32,000 nucleotides of DNA from Bifidobacterium longum subsp. longum JCM 1217 (GTDB taxonomy: Bacteria > Actinomycetota > Actinomycetes > Actinomycetales > Bifidobacteriaceae): positions 1,770,001 through 1,802,000 of the forward strand of contig NC_015067.1 in the NCBI RefSeq assembly GCF_000196555.1, written 5' to 3'. Positions 4,868-18,221 of the stretch are shown piece by piece. Below the pieces are notes generated by a model. That model had not been told where the DNA came from. It searched no databases and saw only the letters and a list, made by a program, of their open reading frames with translations. Numbering within the stretch: the first letter of the stretch is position 1; each line of letters opens with the position of its first letter. The translations under genes and the position numbers were made by a program.

Positions 4868-6298
4868 TCACGCACCCATCGGCAGGAAGATTGCCATGGA
4901 CAGGATGAACATGACGATTACGCCAGCGATCATCGGCACACTGGTACGGCGCACAATGTCGATTGGGCTCTTCTTGATGGAGCCGGCGACGATCATCACC
5001 ACAGCGGAGACCGGCGAGACAGCGCGCAGCAGATTGCCAGCGAGACCCATCGGGATGGACACAGCGAGCACATTGATACCAGCAGCAGCGGCCAGCGGAA
5101 CCATGAGCGGAACCATCGCGAAGAACAGTGCGGTACCGGAACCGGAGAGTAGCACGATGAGCGCAGTGAGGCCGACAAGGATAAGCGGCAGCACGAAGCC
5201 CATACCAGAGCCGGACAGGCCGGTCATTGCGTTCTGCAGTTCGGTGATCAGACCAATGGACTTAAGACCAATGACGAACACAGAAGCAGCGACCAACAGT
5301 GCCACAATCGGCATTGCGCCACCCATGCCCTTGAAGAAGGACTCGGTGCCAGCGAGGGTTTCCTTGCCCTTGCGAGTGCGGATGAGCTCGCAGATAATGG
5401 CGATCACGAAGGAGAGAATGGAAGCGAGTTCAACACTCAGGTCGATCTTTGCGCCGGTGGTGGAAGTGATGGCGAACACGATGAGAAGCATGATGATCGG
5501 CAGCAGCGGCAAAATCGCATACACAGTGCGGTAGAGAGCGCTACCTTCGACAGCCTTAACCTCAGCCAGGTCAACATCACCGTCGGTCAAATCCGAGCCA
5601 GCGCGCTTGTCCATGAACTTCTGCCAGAAGTAGTGTGCCAGTGCCATGACGAGCAAGGTCGGGATGGAAACGAGCACGTGATAACGGAAGACGTAATCGC
5701 TGGCGGTCAGGCCGGAGAACATGTCGGTCTTAGCGAGTTCAGCGGCGATGGCAACATTGTCGGAGCCAAGCGGGGTCGGCATAATCGTTGCAGTAGTGGC
5801 AATGACTGCAGCTGCGCTCAGCAGGCTCATACCAGCTTGGCGAAGCACCGGGTACAGCGTTGCCATAAGGATGATAGCCAGGTTGGAAGCACTCGGAATG
5901 ACCAGAGACAACAGGTTGCCCAACAAGAAGGTAATCGGCACGAGTATATACGGGGACTTGATGTGCGCAATCGGCTTGGCGAGCACACTTACCGTGACTT
6001 CATTGGCTCCGATATGGGACATGTAGCCGGTGTAGCCACCAAGGATGAGGATGATGAAGCCAGCAGAAGTGAGCGTGCTCACGAACTGATCGCCTACAAC
6101 CTTGAACGGATCAAGCCAAGTGACACCACTGGAAACGAAGTCGGTGAATGAGATGTCCTTGCCCATCAGCAATGCGATGTACATCAGCACAATGCCGATG
6201 AGGAACAGGGAAATCTTGATGTCCATTTTCTTCACGAGCATAAAGCCCACAATGCCAACCGCGGCAATTGCCACGAGGTACATAATCACCAGTTCCAT
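4868..6298 (-). CDS. DcuC-family (C4-dicarboxylate anaerobic carrier family) membrane transporter
   Basis: 476 aa and polytopic. Aligns by eye with E. coli DcuC in several blocks: YMSHIGANEVTVSVLAKPIAHIKSPYIL, ILMATLYPVL, AHYFWQKFMDKR, IVRRTSVPMIAGVIVM. ATG at 6298 with GAAAGGA 8 nt upstream. Confidence 0.85.
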   Translation of the reverse strand: MELVIMYLVAIAAVGIVGFMLVKKMDIKISLFLIGIVLMYIALLMGKDISFTDFVSSGVTWLDPFKVVGDQFVSTLTSAGFIILILGGYTGYMSHIGANEVTVSVLAKPIAHIKSPYILVPITFLLGNLLSLVIPSASNLAIILMATLYPVLRQAGMSLLSAAAVIATTATIMPTPLGSDNVAIAAELAKTDMFSGLTASDYVFRYHVLVSIPTLLVMALAHYFWQKFMDKRAGSDLTDGDVDLAEVKAVEGSALYRTVYAILPLLPIIMLLIVFAITSTTGAKIDLSVELASILSFVIAIICELIRTRKGKETLAGTESFFKGMGGAMPIVALLVAASVFVIGLKSIGLITELQNAMTGLSGSGMGFVLPLILVGLTALIVLLSGSGTALFFAMVPLMVPLAAAAGINVLAVSIPMGLAGNLLRAVSPVSAVVMIVAGSIKKSPIDIVRRTSVPMIAGVIVMFILSMAIFLPMGA

Positions 6299-13949: not shown

Positions 13950-15533
13950 TTACTTGCTCAGCTTGGCGTACTCGTCAACCATGAACTGGGCGATCTTCTT
14001 GCCGCCTTCGCCCAACAGGGTGGGCAGCGAGTTGATGGGCATGGAGTTGAGGAACATGCGCATCATCGCATTATCCGGAAGCTTCGGCAGCTCGCCGGCC
14101 TCGCCGGCGGCGGCCACGGCGGCCACGATCTTGGCGCCGAACGGATCGGCCTCCCACTCGCCGTAGGTGGACCATTCGGTGAGCGGCTGGGTCTTGCCAT
14201 CGCCATCGAGGGCCACGGCAACGGTGTCGGCAATGTCGCGGGAGCTCACGCCCACTTCGATGGCATATTCGCCAGACTCCACATGCCAGTCGTTATACTT
14301 TTCGGACCAGTAGGCGAACGCGCGCTCGTCGAGGTCGATGGTCACGGTCTTGGACTCACCGGACTTGAGGAACACCTTGGTAAAGCCCTTAAGCTCGTGC
14401 TTCGGGCGAGCCACGTCAGCCTTGCCCGGTGCAACGTACACCTGCACGGTTTCGGAGGCATCCACATCGGAGGTGTTGGTCACGGTGGCGGTCACGGTGG
14501 CGGTGTTCGCGCCGGTCTTGGCAACGGCGACGTCAGCGATCTCGAACGTGGCATAGCTCAGGCCGTAGCCGAACGGGTAGTCCACAACCTTGCCGTAGGT
14601 GTCGTAGTAGCGGTAGCCGACGAACACGCCCTCGCCGTAGTCGACGTGGCCTTCCTCGCCCGGCCAGTTCAGCATGCTCGGGTCATCGTTGATGTCCAGC
14701 GGAATCGACTGGGCGAGCTTGCCGGACGGGCTGACCTGGCCGAAGATCACATCGGCGAGCGCCGGGCCACCGGACTGGCCGAGCAACCAGGATTCGAGGA
14801 TGCCCTTGGCGTTCTTGGCCCACGGGGCCACGGAGACCACGGAGCCGTTGGACAGCACGACCACGACGTTCTGGTTCGCGGCGGCGACCTGTTCGAGCAG
14901 GGCGATCTGCTTGGCGGGCATGTCGAGGGTGTCGCGGTCGAAGCCCTCGGATTCCGCGGCTTCCGGCAGGCCCAGGAACATGAGGACAACGTCGGCGTTC
15001 TTGGCGGTTTCCACGGCCTCGGATTCGAGGGCCGGGTCGGCCGGTTCCAGATCGAGCGTGAAGCCGGGGGCGAAGTCGGCCTTGATGCCGCGCTCGGCGA
15101 GCGTGTCGAGGAAGCTGGTCATCTTGGTGGGGGTGATGTGGGAGGAGCCGCCGCCCTGGTAGCGCGGGGTGCGGGCGAATTCGCCGATAACGGCGATCTT
15201 CTGGGGCGTGGCGGACGGATTGGCGACTGGGTCGGCGTTCAGCGGCAGAATCGCATCGTCGTTCTTGAGCATCACAATGGATTCAATAGCGGCCTGATGG
15301 GCGACTTCATCGTGGGCGTCCACATCGAAACGGTAATTATCGATGCTCATTGCAGCGCGGGTCTTGTTTACCAAGTCAATCATGCCCTGAGCCATACGAT
15401 CGAGCTGGGCGGGGATGATTAGGCCGTCGCGGACGGCGTAGACAATCTGGTCGTCGGTGTAGCTCGGCGGCATTTCCAGATTCAGGCCTGCATTCAGGGA
15501 GGCCCCACGGTCATGATCGGCGCCCCAGAGGAC
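13950..15533 (-). pseudogene. GH3 beta-glucosidase remnant: C-terminal (alpha/beta)6 and Fn3-like domains only, catalytic N-terminal half missing
   Basis: Homology reads upstream of Met 15473 as ...WGADHDRGASLNAGLNLEMPPSY. It then breaks: VL replaces the expected SD of the SDW nucleophile motif and an in-frame TGA lies at 15534-15536. The downstream part has typical GH3 C-terminal blocks (KIAVIGEFA..PRYQGGGSS, LSYATFE, Fn3-like end). Confidence 0.8.
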
Positions 15534-15765
15534 TCACTCGCTTAGGTGAGATTCTGCGTCCCCTAAGCAAATCCTCATAGAGCTTTCTAGGAGGAAGACG
15601 ACATCGCTTGGAATCATCCAGATAATAATCCAAGCCACATAGATGAGCGAAATTTCCCGAGTCCCAAACAATGGCAAGAGTCAGATCATCTTCACAGTGA
15701 TTTTTTATTGAACGGCCTTCAAGTCGCTCATGATACAGGAGAGCCGCAGCATGGGCTTGCGCCAA
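15511..15765 (-). CDS. small ORF (84 aa from TTG; 94 aa from GTG at 15795) in a low-GC block; possible truncated nuclease-toxin-like protein
   Basis: AAGGAG (15772-15777 on minus), a 6-nt spacer, then TTG at 15765. Sequence ...ALLYHERLEGRSIKNHCEDDLTLAIVWDSGNFAHLCGLDYYLDDSKRCRLPPRKLYEDLLRGR.... The frame runs across the junction into the GH3 remnant and stops at 15511, so the C-terminus is probably not native. Confidence 0.4.
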   Translation of the reverse strand: MAQAHAAALLYHERLEGRSIKNHCEDDLTLAIVWDSGNFAHLCGLDYYLDDSKRCRLPPRKLYEDLLRGRRISPKRVSPLGRRS

Positions 15766-15810
15766 TGCATACTCCTTTGTCTTCGTTATATTCACGGCTC
15801 CCCCTTTGCC

Positions 15811-15849
15811 GAAAAATAAGGGAGGGACATCTGAGCCAGATGTCCCTCC
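15811..15849 (-). terminator. strong intrinsic terminator (minus strand)
   Basis: Minus strand reads GGAGGGACATCT-GGCTC-AGATGTCCCTCC followed by CTTATTTTT: a perfect 12-bp GC-rich stem, 5-nt loop and U-tract. It lies between the structured segment and the SD of the small ORF. Confidence 0.8.
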
Positions 15850-16139
15850 TGAGATGAAAAGCCATGTTTTACAGTCTTCTGCATGACTATCATCCACTAC
15901 TTTCGAAGTGGAATCGGTAGTGGCTTCGGTTGGCCCAACCGTATCACCCAGCCACTGGGCTAGGCACCCTGCTTTCGCGGTATTCGTCCGCGCGGACGAA
16001 TCAAGTGCCAGCGGCGGCTGACTTCTCATCTCGAACCCGCAACCCACCCCGCCGCAAAGGATAGGCCGGGTCACGAAGCTCACTCTCTACCTTACACAAT
16101 TGGCTCGAATCATGCCACCAGAGAGCGATTTCGTTCTCA
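15850..16139 (-). ncRNA. candidate structured RNA or leader (unclassified)
   Basis: No convincing coding frame, yet hairpins are densely nested or serial: 16081-16127 (8 bp), 16011-16055 (GCGGCGG/CCGCCGC), perfect 20-nt palindrome 15982-16001, 15947-15959 (CCCAG/CTGGG), 15928-15940 and 15894-15923 (CCACTAC/GTAGTGG). It ends in the terminator at 15811-15849. Confidence 0.3.
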
Positions 16140-17354
16140 TTACACCATCCAACCGGCGTGCCAGACGTGAGTGAGATCCCAAGGGTCGAGGCGTGACGTG
16201 TCGGATTGCGGGTCGATGGTAGGCAAGAAATCACGATTACCACGTAATTGGTAGCTCCAATAGATTTGCCCGGCGGACACGTTCCATGCCTTGCGTTGCA
16301 TGGCGGCGATCTCGCGGTAAATAGAGCCTCTGATAGATGCACTGTGCATGGCGTTTTCCTTGGAGCGGCCACCATCGCCTGTACGCTTATCGACCACCCG
16401 ATTTACCAGACCATTAGCCACGCACCACTCCCCTACAATCACCGGCGTATAGCGCGCGGCCCGGCGGATGCGGCGTTCGTTCCAGCGCACGAACAAGCGA
16501 TACCAGCCCATCAGCCACCGATCCGGGATCAGACGGAACAGCGGGAATTGCTCGGCCATGACCAGATAGACATGCGTATCGAGCATGACGCCCCGCATGC
16601 CCTCGCGCACGAACCAGTCCCGCCAACGGCCCAGTCGGAAGCCGTCATGGAACACGATGACTTGATTCCCTGCCAGAATCGGGCGCAACCGGTGGTATGT
16701 CTCGCGGTAGAAACGCTTGAGGAACGCCATCGGAATAGGCCCGCTTCCTCGCGCTTCGGACCGGTCTTTCGCCTGCCTGCTCGATGGTGACATGGCATAC
16801 GTCAGCCAGTCAATCGGCTCATTCAGCACTTCGATACCGAACAGCGCCGCGTGGTCGCGATACCGGCGAGCCAGACGGACCAGCACATCCAGCGCATAGG
16901 CGACCGCTCGCGGGCTACGATGCCAGCGCACCACGCCGGTGAGGCCGCCGTTATCGAATCCGTTCTGCGAGCCGGGCACCGTGTGCAGGTCGATAAGAAT
17001 CTTGAGCCCGGTCCGCTCGGCCCAGTCGAACGCTCTGTCCAGATACTCGGTACAGCCCGGGTGACCGGGCACATCCCCGAACACGAAATACGGCACTGGA
17101 ATACGCACCAGATTGCAGCCATGTGCGGCAATGTTCCGAAAATCGGCCTCGGTAATATACGTGTCGCGATGCCGCGTCAGCAAAGCCTCCAGCTCAGCCG
17201 ACTTCGTAGCCCGATGCAGCCAGATCTCGTCCGCCTCGCCGCTGGCGGCAAAAATCCCCGGCTTCATCCACCGCTCCAGCACCAGCCAATTGCCGAGGTT
17301 CACCCCATTAATTCGTTCGCCAACACCCAGCGCGCCCGATGCCATACCTGTCAC
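16140..17354 (-). CDS. GH5 glycoside hydrolase (exo-beta-1,3-glucanase/cellulase-family), cytoplasmic
   Basis: INGVNLGNWLVLERWM N-terminal block typical of GH5 exo-glucanases. Also DLHTVPGSQNG and acid/base IEVLNEP. No signal peptide. Start is GTG at 17354 or ATG at 17345. Confidence 0.85.
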   Translation of the reverse strand: MTGMASGALGVGERINGVNLGNWLVLERWMKPGIFAASGEADEIWLHRATKSAELEALLTRHRDTYITEADFRNIAAHGCNLVRIPVPYFVFGDVPGHPGCTEYLDRAFDWAERTGLKILIDLHTVPGSQNGFDNGGLTGVVRWHRSPRAVAYALDVLVRLARRYRDHAALFGIEVLNEPIDWLTYAMSPSSRQAKDRSEARGSGPIPMAFLKRFYRETYHRLRPILAGNQVIVFHDGFRLGRWRDWFVREGMRGVMLDTHVYLVMAEQFPLFRLIPDRWLMGWYRLFVRWNERRIRRAARYTPVIVGEWCVANGLVNRVVDKRTGDGGRSKENAMHSASIRGSIYREIAAMQRKAWNVSAGQIYWSYQLRGNRDFLPTIDPQSDTSRLDPWDLTHVWHAGWMV

Positions 17355-17355
17355 G

Positions 17356-17757
17356 CTAATCGTTCAATGCTTCACCGTAGCGAGCGACCAACCCCTGATT
17401 TGCACGCTCAAACTCGGGGATGTAATCAGCGATGATGGCGTCCACAAGACGCCGAGCTCGTTCTTCATCATAGATATGAGCAGAATCATTGCGATCGCGC
17501 AGCATGCGCAGCCACAACGATTCGTCCATGAAATCATAGTATTGAAAAGCGGTTTTGAGCACATCTCGCGGAGAGCCGGAAGCGGAAACAGGGTCTCCCT
17601 CATAAGCCAGCAGCGCCTTGAACAGTTTCCAACCAAGCTCGAACTGCAACCCGAACTTGTCAATAATGCCGCTCTGGATGAAATCATTGCCGAGATCCTG
17701 TTCGGGAGCCTTGCGCAGCGAATTCAATGCGGAAACGTAATTCTCATACTTTTTCAT
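17356..17757 (-). CDS. hepT: HEPN-domain toxin, HI0074/nucleotidyltransferase-substrate-binding family (HepT-like)
   Basis: MKKYENYVSALNSL...FGLQFELGWKLFKALLAYEG... and the Rx4H HEPN motif in LRDRNDSAHIY. The ATG at 17757 overlaps the upstream MNT gene by 14 nt. Confidence 0.85.
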   Translation of the reverse strand: MKKYENYVSALNSLRKAPEQDLGNDFIQSGIIDKFGLQFELGWKLFKALLAYEGDPVSASGSPRDVLKTAFQYYDFMDESLWLRMLRDRNDSAHIYDEERARRLVDAIIADYIPEFERANQGLVARYGEALND

Positions 17758-18031
17758 ACAGCACCTTTCCGCTACGCTCAATCTCCGCCCTCAGCGATGA
17801 AGAAATCGGCTCATCCAGATTGATGACATCAACTTTAAGCAGTGACCACAGATTGTCCTGAAGGTTCTGCTCCAAGCGATTGAAATCGGGACAACCGGCC
17901 ACGGCAAGATCGATATCGCTTTTAGGCCGGTTCACGCCCTTTGCGCGAGAACCGAACAGCACGACCTTGCGAGCGCCGGCATCAGCGGCAAACGCGCGAA
18001 TCTGGTCGTACACGTGCTCGATAGGAACCAT
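17744..18031 (-). CDS. mntA: minimal nucleotidyltransferase antitoxin (MntA-like)
   Basis: VVLFGSRAKGVNRPKSDIDLAV is the GSx(n)DxD Pol-beta-type NTase motif. About 95 aa. ATG at 18031 preceded by GGGAGG. Confidence 0.85.
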   Translation of the reverse strand: MVPIEHVYDQIRAFAADAGARKVVLFGSRAKGVNRPKSDIDLAVAGCPDFNRLEQNLQDNLWSLLKVDVINLDEPISSSLRAEIERSGKVLYEKV

Positions 18032-18221
18032 GACACCTCCCGCCGCATCCAACAGTCCCGGACCAATCCCGGACCACCCGCGCTTCCATCATACGGCCGC
18101 GGCCCACTCACCGCACGGAGCCCGAACCACCCGAACGCGGCGACGTAGTTGCGGGAGGCGGGCTGGCGCTGTAGGGTGTGCGGGAAGTTCCTGACGTCTA
18201 CTTTTCAGGAGGTGAATCCTC

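Follow-up and report, generated by a model that had tools for sequence, protein, structure and literature searches.

In the canonical type III toxin–antitoxin (TA) systems (ToxIN, CptIN and TenpIN), an RNA gene lies directly 5′ of the gene for an endoribonuclease (endoRNase) toxin. An intrinsic terminator between the two sets the ratio of RNA to toxin, and the RNA is an array of 34–45-nt tandem repeats that the toxin processes. These modules are carried by phages, plasmids and defense islands, they have no protein antitoxin, and their RNA forms a pseudoknot. Two other described systems are close. RCd22, a non-repeat noncoding RNA (ncRNA), neutralizes the AbiF toxin of a C. difficile prophage; it affects expression in cis and, as an antitoxin in trans, binds the protein directly (PMC12373285). 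AvcI is a small RNA, encoded adjacent to its toxin gene, that inhibits AvcD post-translationally and participates in phage defense (PMC10511110). Here, we describe a locus in a 32,000-nt stretch of Bifidobacterium longum subsp. longum JCM 1217 (contig NC_015067.1, positions 1,770,001 to 1,802,000; hereafter “the window”). Its minus strand encodes, at 15812–16084, a standalone, pseudoknotted RNA of ~270 nt with a putative promoter and a terminator of its own. The RNA is followed by a truncated gene for PBECR4, the phage Barnase-EndoU-ColicinE5/D-RelE-like nuclease 4, for which RNase activity was predicted by Iyer et al. in 2017 (PMC5512222). Judging from sequence comparisons, we estimate a probability of about 0.5 that this is a new class of type III-like module, in which the RNA is the antitoxin and PBECR4 the toxin.

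How does this locus compare to its closest counterparts? As in the canonical type III systems, an RNA gene is located directly 5′ of the gene for an endoRNase toxin (a predicted one here), and an intrinsic terminator (15849–15812) occupies the same place, ahead of the toxin start at 15795; other lineages are arranged alike, with an unclear U-tract in locus L105. Carriage on mobile DNA, the lack of a protein antitoxin and the presence of an RNA pseudoknot are shared as well. Unlike the canonical antitoxins, however, the RNA is a single multi-helix fold of ~270 nt rather than a processed repeat array, and the toxin is PBECR4, with its predicted BECR fold, rather than a member of the ToxN, CptN or TenpN family. 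Thus, the locus lacks two traits that define the canonical families, namely an antitoxin built of repeats and a toxin of the ToxN, CptN or TenpN type, and it presents a new RNA family and a new toxin family within a known architecture. This layout of structured RNA, terminator and nuclease gene had been pointed out in a first-pass annotation that was made from the letters of the window; the downstream gene proved to encode a predicted RNase, although it is truncated in the window.

AbiF/RCd22 (the abiF RNA motif) resembles the present locus in being prophage-encoded and in having a non-repetitive, structured ncRNA 5′ of a toxic, RNA-targeting protein (PMC12373285). The RNA families nevertheless differ, as the RNA described here matches no Rfam 15 model, including any for abiF; moreover, its size is greater, a closing helix and a pseudoknot are part of its fold, and its partner is PBECR4 instead of an Abi_2/HEPN-like protein. 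AvcID likewise encodes an RNA next to a protein toxin, but AvcD is a dCMP/dCTP deaminase, not an RNase, and the RNA is unrelated. Finally, the locus is reminiscent of transcription-terminating riboswitch leaders, in which a conserved, aptamer-like pseudoknotted fold is followed by a terminator, a Shine-Dalgarno (SD) sequence and an open reading frame (ORF). It differs from them in that neither a conserved antiterminator nor an expression platform overlapping the fold was found, that no known class matches, and that the linked gene is one for a (predicted) mobile-element toxin.

An RNA partner is not mentioned in the papers that define or classify the PBECR domains, and the RNA is absent from the text and from the 200 (of 408) searched supplementary files of a large human-microbiome RNA catalogue (PMC8040213). 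In that searched portion, Table S1 lists a Firmicutes candidate RNA, from Streptococcus/Lactococcus elements resembling integrative and conjugative elements, with ToxN (112), TenpN (29), PBECR3 (16), PBECR4 (15) and CptN (8) as neighbors, and a Capnocytophaga candidate RNA with PBECR1 and PBECR3 as neighbors. Going by these entries, PBECR genes may fill type III toxin slots in other phyla.

A conserved, strand-specific RNA

The GH5 ORF on the minus strand terminates at 16140, and the 374 nt downstream of it hold the palindrome, the GC-rich strings, the terminator and the AAGGAG-N6-TTG motif listed by the first-pass annotation, which regarded the segment as unclassified, hairpin-dense and RNA-like. 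Indeed, the minus strand of 15805–16139 has a minimum free energy of −151.8 kcal/mol (z = −7.5 vs. dinucleotide shuffles, which also apply below), and the conserved core (15812–16084) has one of −129.2 kcal/mol (z = −6.6). The antisense of the core reaches −107.1 kcal/mol; the sense strand is thus better by 22 kcal/mol. The structure is real and strand-specific. A covariance model built on 17 sequences (see below) matches the window at 15805–16084 with 261 bits. Conservation is limited to 15812–16084, and the first ~55 nt past the GH5 stop are found only in B. longum; the structured RNA, which had been drawn as beginning just after that stop, therefore has its conserved 5′ boundary at 16084.

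No Rfam 15 family matched the window at the gathering threshold, and relaxing the search to E ≤ 10 yielded only noise, the best match being mir-610 (20 bits vs. a threshold of 90). Rfam searches of the homologous loci returned only a tRNA elsewhere, and that of L107 only noise. A scan for tRNA and tmRNA in the segment was negative, as was BLASTN of the segment against plasmid and phage collections. Neither TRF (minimum score 30) nor a direct-repeat search revealed tandem repeats or repeat families, in keeping with the earlier remark that the RNA is not made of them. The reported fall in GC content from ~60% in the hairpin-rich part to ~45% in the downstream ORF was reproduced (~0.60 over 15900–16099 vs. 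~0.455 over 15600–15799), and it occurs across the terminator. Substitutions in the homologues preserve stems rather than following a three-nucleotide period, and the RNA is conserved outside this strain, in prophages and in other Bifidobacterium species. Within B. longum, the intergenic region has few substitutions, all of them compensatory or in loops. The first-pass annotation had staked its reading on Rfam, on the substitution pattern and on conservation; all three outcomes favored it, and its notion of a structure-constrained RNA on foreign DNA is supported.

Could the segment instead be something other than an RNA gene, such as a GH5 3′-untranslated region with chance hairpins, a decayed coding sequence (CDS), or a DNA element (cos/pac, an origin or a recombination site)? 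It is positioned directly past the GH5 stop, an open frame of 190 aa crosses it, and it is near the terminase gene in some prophages. However, it is conserved also where GH5 is absent, its position varies among prophages, and the frame is broken by indels while the substitutions are compensatory; furthermore, G-U pairs, which are numerous in the alignment, and the 22-kcal/mol strand asymmetry indicate a transcript from one strand. The comparative data largely refute such explanations, and we attach scarcely any weight to them.

The 190-aa ORF (15511–16083, minus strand), which is called by public gene callers, was rejected as a real protein: because indels shift the frame among homologues and the substitutions are compensatory and preserve stems, it is non-coding. 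The first-pass annotation had seen no convincing reading frame in the segment. A long frame does in fact span it, but the judgment that the segment does not code is upheld by the comparison. Public gene predictions that read through the RNA and its terminator (P0001, P0002 and P0004) constitute “proteins” of 190, 253 and 271 aa with 772, 153 and 1701 member sequences, respectively. In these calls, a non-coding RNA seems to have been taken for an N-terminal extension, a widespread annotation error that the present analysis makes visible.

Architecture of the RNA

RNAalifold and the counting of pairs yielded an architecture that comprises a 5′ hairpin (P1), a closing helix (P2), a junction bearing P3, P4, P5, P6 and P7, and then the terminator hairpin. 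We examined covariation in the diverse 17-sequence alignment with a curated structure, using slid pairing partners as controls. In this alignment, which was fitted to the covariance model, 94.0% of the cells are paired, vs. 35–49% with slid partners. Changes on both sides were found in 45 of 65 pairs, vs. 8–26 with slid partners, and none of 500 shuffles matched the observed value.

The individual elements are all on the minus strand. P1 (ACCCGG.CCUAUCC ... GGGGUGGG..CGGGU; 16035–16071; helices 1 and 2) changes on both sides in 6 of 10 pairs. The long closing helix P2 is formed by a 5′ strand (GAGAUGAGAAGUCAGC; 16017–16032) and a 3′ strand (GGCUUUUCAUCUC; 15851–15863) that ends 1–2 nt ahead of the terminator; it has 12–14 bp, its sequence is wholly different from lineage to lineage, and 11 of its 12 modeled pairs covary (helices 3 and 4). 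The P3 domain (15963–16009; helices 6–8, with 5/7 and 3/3 pairs covarying) has a GGCACUU/GGGUGCC stem that encloses a small GAAA/GAGA-loop hairpin (15979–15969) and a hairpin made by the perfect 20-nt palindrome ATTCGTCCGCGCGGACGAAT. The latter was found at 16001–15982, as had been claimed, and shows a C-G to U-A change within B. longum. P5 (CGGUUGGGCCAACCG; 15927–15941; helix 11) covaries in 5 of 6 pairs. P6 (CCACUUCGAAAGUAGUGG; 15894–15911) is variable: every lineage has a hairpin there, of unrelated sequence and length. P7 (AGUC-AUGCAGAA-GACU; 15873–15888) has a covarying stem of 3–4 bp (GUC/GAC, GCC/GGC or ACCG/CGGU) and an invariant GCAG loop motif. The intrinsic terminator (15812–15849) has a 13-bp stem (15849–15821) plus CUUAUUUUU, the stretch at 15820–15812 reading CTTATTTTT; all 8 of its modeled pairs covary (helices 15 and 16). 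It is as strong as the first-pass annotation held, although one base pair longer than the 12 bp quoted.

A scan for additional covarying helices brought out the pseudoknot. The loop AGUGGCU (15950–15956) of the P4 hairpin (GCCC-AGUGGCU-GGGU; 15946–15960; helix 9) pairs with AGCCACU (15919–15925; helix 10), a segment just 3′ of P5. Five of these seven pairs change on both sides, and at least seven distinct complementary forms occur across the lineages (AGUGGCU/AGCCACU, GUGACU/AGUCGC, UGGCA/UGCCA, ACGGCU/AGCCGU, AGCGGA/UCCGCU, GCGAAC/GUUCGC and GGCGAU/AUCGUC). A junction motif, GCYGYCGC (GCCGCCGC in the window; 16011–16018), is near-invariant and kept in all lineages; a contact with the GCAG loop of P7 is conceivable, although covariation does not support it.

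Two other pairings were discarded. The UGCAG/CUGUA pairing that RNAalifold proposed for P7 is broken in L105 and in L107-type sequences, and the covarying GUC/GAC stem was adopted instead. Both strings of the 7-bp GCGGCGG/CCGCCGC stem listed in the first-pass annotation are present (16055–16049 and 16017–16011), but the stem shows no covariation. The result is an RNA family with a well-supported secondary structure and a pseudoknot that is absent from Rfam 15 and the searchable literature and is common in human-gut Bifidobacterium prophages.

Association with PBECR4

The RNA adjoins PBECR4 on its 5′ side wherever adequate upstream sequence exists, and the link is obligate. Together with a stand-alone PBECR4, it was found in Bifidobacterium prophages, IMG/VR contigs, human-gut metagenomes and a plasmid-like contig, in at least eight lineages whose PBECR4 proteins are 18–50% identical. 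A homologous upstream region also accompanies PBECR4 genes of only 42–51% identity, which lie in 40 IMG/VR loci and in B. biavatii, B. miconis and B. samirii prophages. These 40 loci, found by way of the protein, are at the same contig places as the 40 found with an exact 20-mer RNA motif. Of 62 loci, 59 contain an exact copy of the 15-mer CATGCAGAAGACTGT, always on the strand of PBECR4 and ~90–120 nt upstream of it. The covariance model also gave full-length matches directly upstream of much more distant PBECR4 genes, with E-values of 4e-19 in L022 (B. margollesii, in which an insertion sequence (IS) has since separated the RNA from PBECR4), 5e-06 in L105, 9e-04 in L103/L104 and 0.007 in L106, and a borderline 0.014 in MT835895, a faecal phage scaffold. 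For a second clade of proteins (~28–31% identity; one IMG/VR contig and 39 human-gut metagenome contigs), full-length RNA was detected in 38 of 40 loci with E-values of ~1e-10 to 1e-13; in the other two, contig ends cut off the upstream sequence. Searching IMG/VR for related loci with single distant proteins gave none, and tblastn of P0067 against plasmids gave no match.

The flanking genes differ among lineages. An upstream protein was considered as a third component and rejected, as the upstream proteins are unrelated between lineages. Because no flanking protein is conserved, the module has two parts, and the RNA and PBECR4 form a two-part mobile module of Bifidobacterium prophages, gut phage contigs and a plasmid-like contig. 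Stand-alone, uncharacterized PBECR4 proteins thereby gain a consistent genetic partner, and a domain prediction from 2017 becomes a testable two-component system.

The surroundings of the module fit a toxin, to judge from several neighbors and positions. L103/L104 are plasmid-like, and HicAB, YafQ/Phd pairs and RepA_C neighbor L103. In prophages, the module occupies moron-like positions, either after the endolysin gene or ahead of the terminase gene. In B. longum, a block of MNT, HEPN, GH5, the RNA and PBECR4 recurs with differing flanks, as if it had been moved or kept as a unit.

The toxin gene has been inactivated repeatedly, with the RNA intact where this could be checked: by the deletion in the window, by IS elements in L014 and L022, and in frameshifted alleles. 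The frameshifted B. longum alleles are P0016, P0017, P0030 and P0031. Three independent IS/transposase insertions are located at or near the 5′ end of PBECR4 (L022, 2400–3965; L014, 3822–4922; L005, 13–781). Those in L022 and L014 sit just past the terminator of an intact RNA; in L005, the IS is upstream of PBECR4, and no RNA was detected. The recurrence of IS elements and frameshifts suggests selection against the toxin or, alternatively, a preference of IS elements for the terminator hairpin.

These patterns bear on the possibility that the RNA is an obligate ribonucleoprotein cofactor, which would not inhibit PBECR4 but would be needed, as a scaffold or activator, for its activity or targeting. 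Such a role would comport with the strict co-occurrence and with the fact that motifs of the RNA and the NFAHLCG motif of the protein are conserved. Yet the RNA has no variable guide-like segment, the P6 hairpin being its sole variable part, and the recurrent loss of the protein with retention of the RNA is unexpected of mutually dependent partners (though these events may be recent). In addition, the PBECR domains of polyvalent proteins have not been reported with such an RNA partner (PMC5512222). We therefore deem a cofactor role unlikely.

Two loci depart from the general pattern. In a second B. biavatii copy (L021, 3728–3976), the RNA has neither the P2 3′ strand nor the terminator, and ACG occupies the PBECR4 start position; this copy is probably decaying. 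In a 1.45-kb metagenome contig (L013, 730–1004), the RNA gives way to unrelated AT-rich sequence without PBECR4. It is the sole possible RNA-only case and is most likely a chimeric assembly.

The transcription unit

A TAnnnT hexamer ends 3–7 nt ahead of the model start in nine representatives of eight lineages (TAAGGT, TATGCT, TAGGCT twice, TACAAT twice, TATCGT and TATATT). In the window, this putative −10 box of the RNA's own promoter is TAAGGT (16089–16094, minus strand; read by eye). L017 and L020 have an additional TTGACG or TTGGCT at an 18-nt spacing. A CTCTCT...AGAGAG hairpin (16125–16083, minus strand) that is specific to B. longum lies directly past the GH5 stop and overlaps the putative −10 box. 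This hairpin might terminate GH5 transcription or block access to the RNA promoter.

At the other end of the RNA, nearly every lineage has a terminator with a clear U-tract; that of L105 is weak and without a clear one. In the window, the terminator ends ~15 nt ahead of the PBECR4 ribosome-binding site, and across lineages it is followed within ~20–35 nt by the SD sequence and start codon. Because this gap has no room for a promoter, PBECR4 would be transcribed by read-through only. A 7-mer test, which weaker alternatives could escape, revealed no conserved antiterminator: no upstream column was complementary to either terminator arm in at least 6 of 11 lineages, and none was found in the window. 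P2 and the terminator are adjacent and do not overlap, so both can form at once. The terminator appears to be constitutive.

Does the RNA act in cis instead, as a riboswitch-like or factor-binding attenuator whose fold responds to a metabolite, a second messenger, a tRNA or a protein by setting how much transcription or translation continues into PBECR4? This is the principal rival explanation, and several observations are congenial to it. A structured domain, a terminator, and an SD sequence with a gene follow one another in the expected order; the fold is complex and pseudoknotted, with invariant unpaired nucleotides that are kept although the proteins are only ~18–30% identical; and the RNA is always in cis on the same strand, with no orphan copy in IMG/VR. 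On the other hand, the terminator arms have no conserved complement, P2 and the terminator are compatible, no known riboswitch class matches, and the gene to be controlled is a mobile-element nuclease rather than a metabolic one. The context of the PBECR4 genes also holds no metabolic clue to a ligand. We regard this explanation as a serious contender, albeit a somewhat unlikely one, and of the two layouts, the type III-like one is the better supported by the evidence.

A short ORF (MQKTVK...; 15792–15884, minus strand) has its AUG within the invariant P7 loop. Conceivably, it could be translated through the terminator and bring ribosomes to the PBECR4 start, that is, mediate leader-peptide attenuation or translational coupling. 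Its stop overlaps the PBECR4 start (GTGA or ATGA) in the window, L015 and L020. However, an early stop cuts the ORF short in L023 and L139, in L007 and L107 it shares the frame of PBECR4, and in L105, L103 and L022 its AUG is missing despite the conserved GCAG loop; the peptide is not conserved beyond the invariant nucleotides. A conserved leader peptide was rejected, given that frame, length and start codon are inconsistent across lineages, and coupling of this kind is very improbable.

How the RNA may act

Most likely, the RNA is the antitoxin or regulator of PBECR4. A type III-like module is favored because the two genes are strictly associated across contexts with no protein partner, because their locations are TA-rich or moron-like and the terminator is apparently constitutive, and because the toxin gene has been inactivated repeatedly and independently while the RNA was intact where checkable. 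The precedents of AbiF/RCd22 (PMC12373285) and AvcID (PMC10511110) also favor it. In such a module, the promoter would drive synthesis of the RNA, and the terminator would halt most transcripts, which would result in abundant free RNA; occasional read-through would furnish the only PBECR4 mRNA. The RNA would bind and neutralize PBECR4, a predicted metal-independent endoRNase, possibly with its invariant loops serving as a substrate mimic. Once transcription of the RNA stopped or the RNA was degraded, the toxin would be freed, and type III-like TA or abortive-infection behavior would ensue. Should the RNA prove to be an antitoxin, the range of type III-like systems would widen to include a BECR-fold toxin and, next to the recent case of AbiF/RCd22, a large RNA that is not built of repeats. 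The module would then be a candidate for anti-phage defense or prophage maintenance in an important infant-gut commensal.

Several points weigh against this interpretation. PBECR4 toxicity, RNA–protein binding and the ends of the transcript are matters that we infer, and the RNase activity of PBECR4 is itself a prediction (PMC5512222). For an AlphaFold 2 model of the protein (pLDDT 88.3), no structure in the PDB matched at an E-value under 0.1, and RelE/HigB and contact-dependent inhibition toxins came up only at 0.5–1.4, which did not confirm the BECR fold. Tandem repeats, which all canonical type III antitoxins have, are missing from the RNA. Several of its motifs are invariant although the proteins share only ~18–30% identity, a pattern that suits recognition of an invariant ligand or cellular factor, as by a riboswitch, better than it suits a fast co-evolving antitoxin. 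A scan for the sigma-70 consensus did not call the promoter in the window. Lastly, an alignment fitted to a covariance model leans towards the structure of that model.

With lower probability, the RNA would be a sensing element as well as an antitoxin. Its invariant loops (GCAG, GCYGYCGC and the GAGA hairpin) might mimic the cellular RNA target of PBECR4 or bind an invariant infection signal, a proposal that we consider speculative. The nuclease would then be held inactive and be released or activated on cue, the RNA uniting a riboswitch-like sensor with the antitoxin function of a type III-like system; this, too, is a rather doubtful arrangement. Equally tentative is the extension of this idea, that the locus typifies a new class of RNA–protein abortive-infection modules in actinobacterial and other gut prophages.

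The PBECR4 gene of the window and its surroundings

In the window, the SD sequence GGGGGAG (15804–15798) precedes the true GTG start of PBECR4 (15795–15793; together 15793–15804, minus strand), and this start context is kept across lineages. The product from GTG 15795, MNITKTKEYALAQ..., aligns with B. biavatii PBECR4 from residue 1. The AAGGAG-N6-TTG motif that the first-pass annotation had taken for the opening of a small ORF is present, with its TTG at 15765, but it lies inside this CDS. The truncated gene (15525–15795, minus strand) retains the N-terminal ~90 of ~175 codons and corresponds to positions 4–71 of 188 in PF18813, which is the sole Pfam match of the downstream ORF. Its score of 23.6–24.1 bits is below the PF18813 cut-off of 27, whereas the full-length B. 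longum protein P0024 (40.9 bits) and a clade-2 protein (38.3 bits) pass. Full-length relatives have 165–178 aa. BECR-fold RNases are expected to have a catalytic His and a C-terminal Ser/Thr; in PBECR4, the motif NFAHLCG contains an invariant His, and PQSL contains a Ser that is near-invariant. PADLOC and NCBIfam returned no matches for the truncated ORFs of the window. For the PBECR4 family, neither a profile search of PDB sequences nor Foldseek against the PDB gave anything significant, and a BFVD structure search matched only two phage proteins.

Homology to the intact locus L001 stops at 15525, and at the junction (15473–15530) the PBECR4 CDS runs into a GH3 beta-glucosidase gene that is truncated at its 5′ end (13950–15524 with the deletion junction, minus strand; outside the module). 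The loss of homology and the GH3 fusion therefore identify the gene as a toxin pseudogene left by a deletion, and the remnant in the window is an orphan RNA gene with a toxin pseudogene. Compared with L001 and L014, the window is without a TetR gene; compared with L001, it is also without an MFS/peptidase/esterase cluster.

On the upstream side, an MNT/HEPN pair is encoded just ahead of GH5 on the minus strand (Polbeta/NTP_transf_2, 17747–18052; NTase_sub_bind, 17359–17781). A partial protein annotated as being from Escherichia coli (P0032; GKF79_24965) is 94% identical to B. longum PBECR4 and is probably a contamination of that assembly. In the B. biavatii prophage of L015, a tRNA gene (5671–5743; Rfam tRNA, 46.8 bits) is located ~140 nt downstream of PBECR4.

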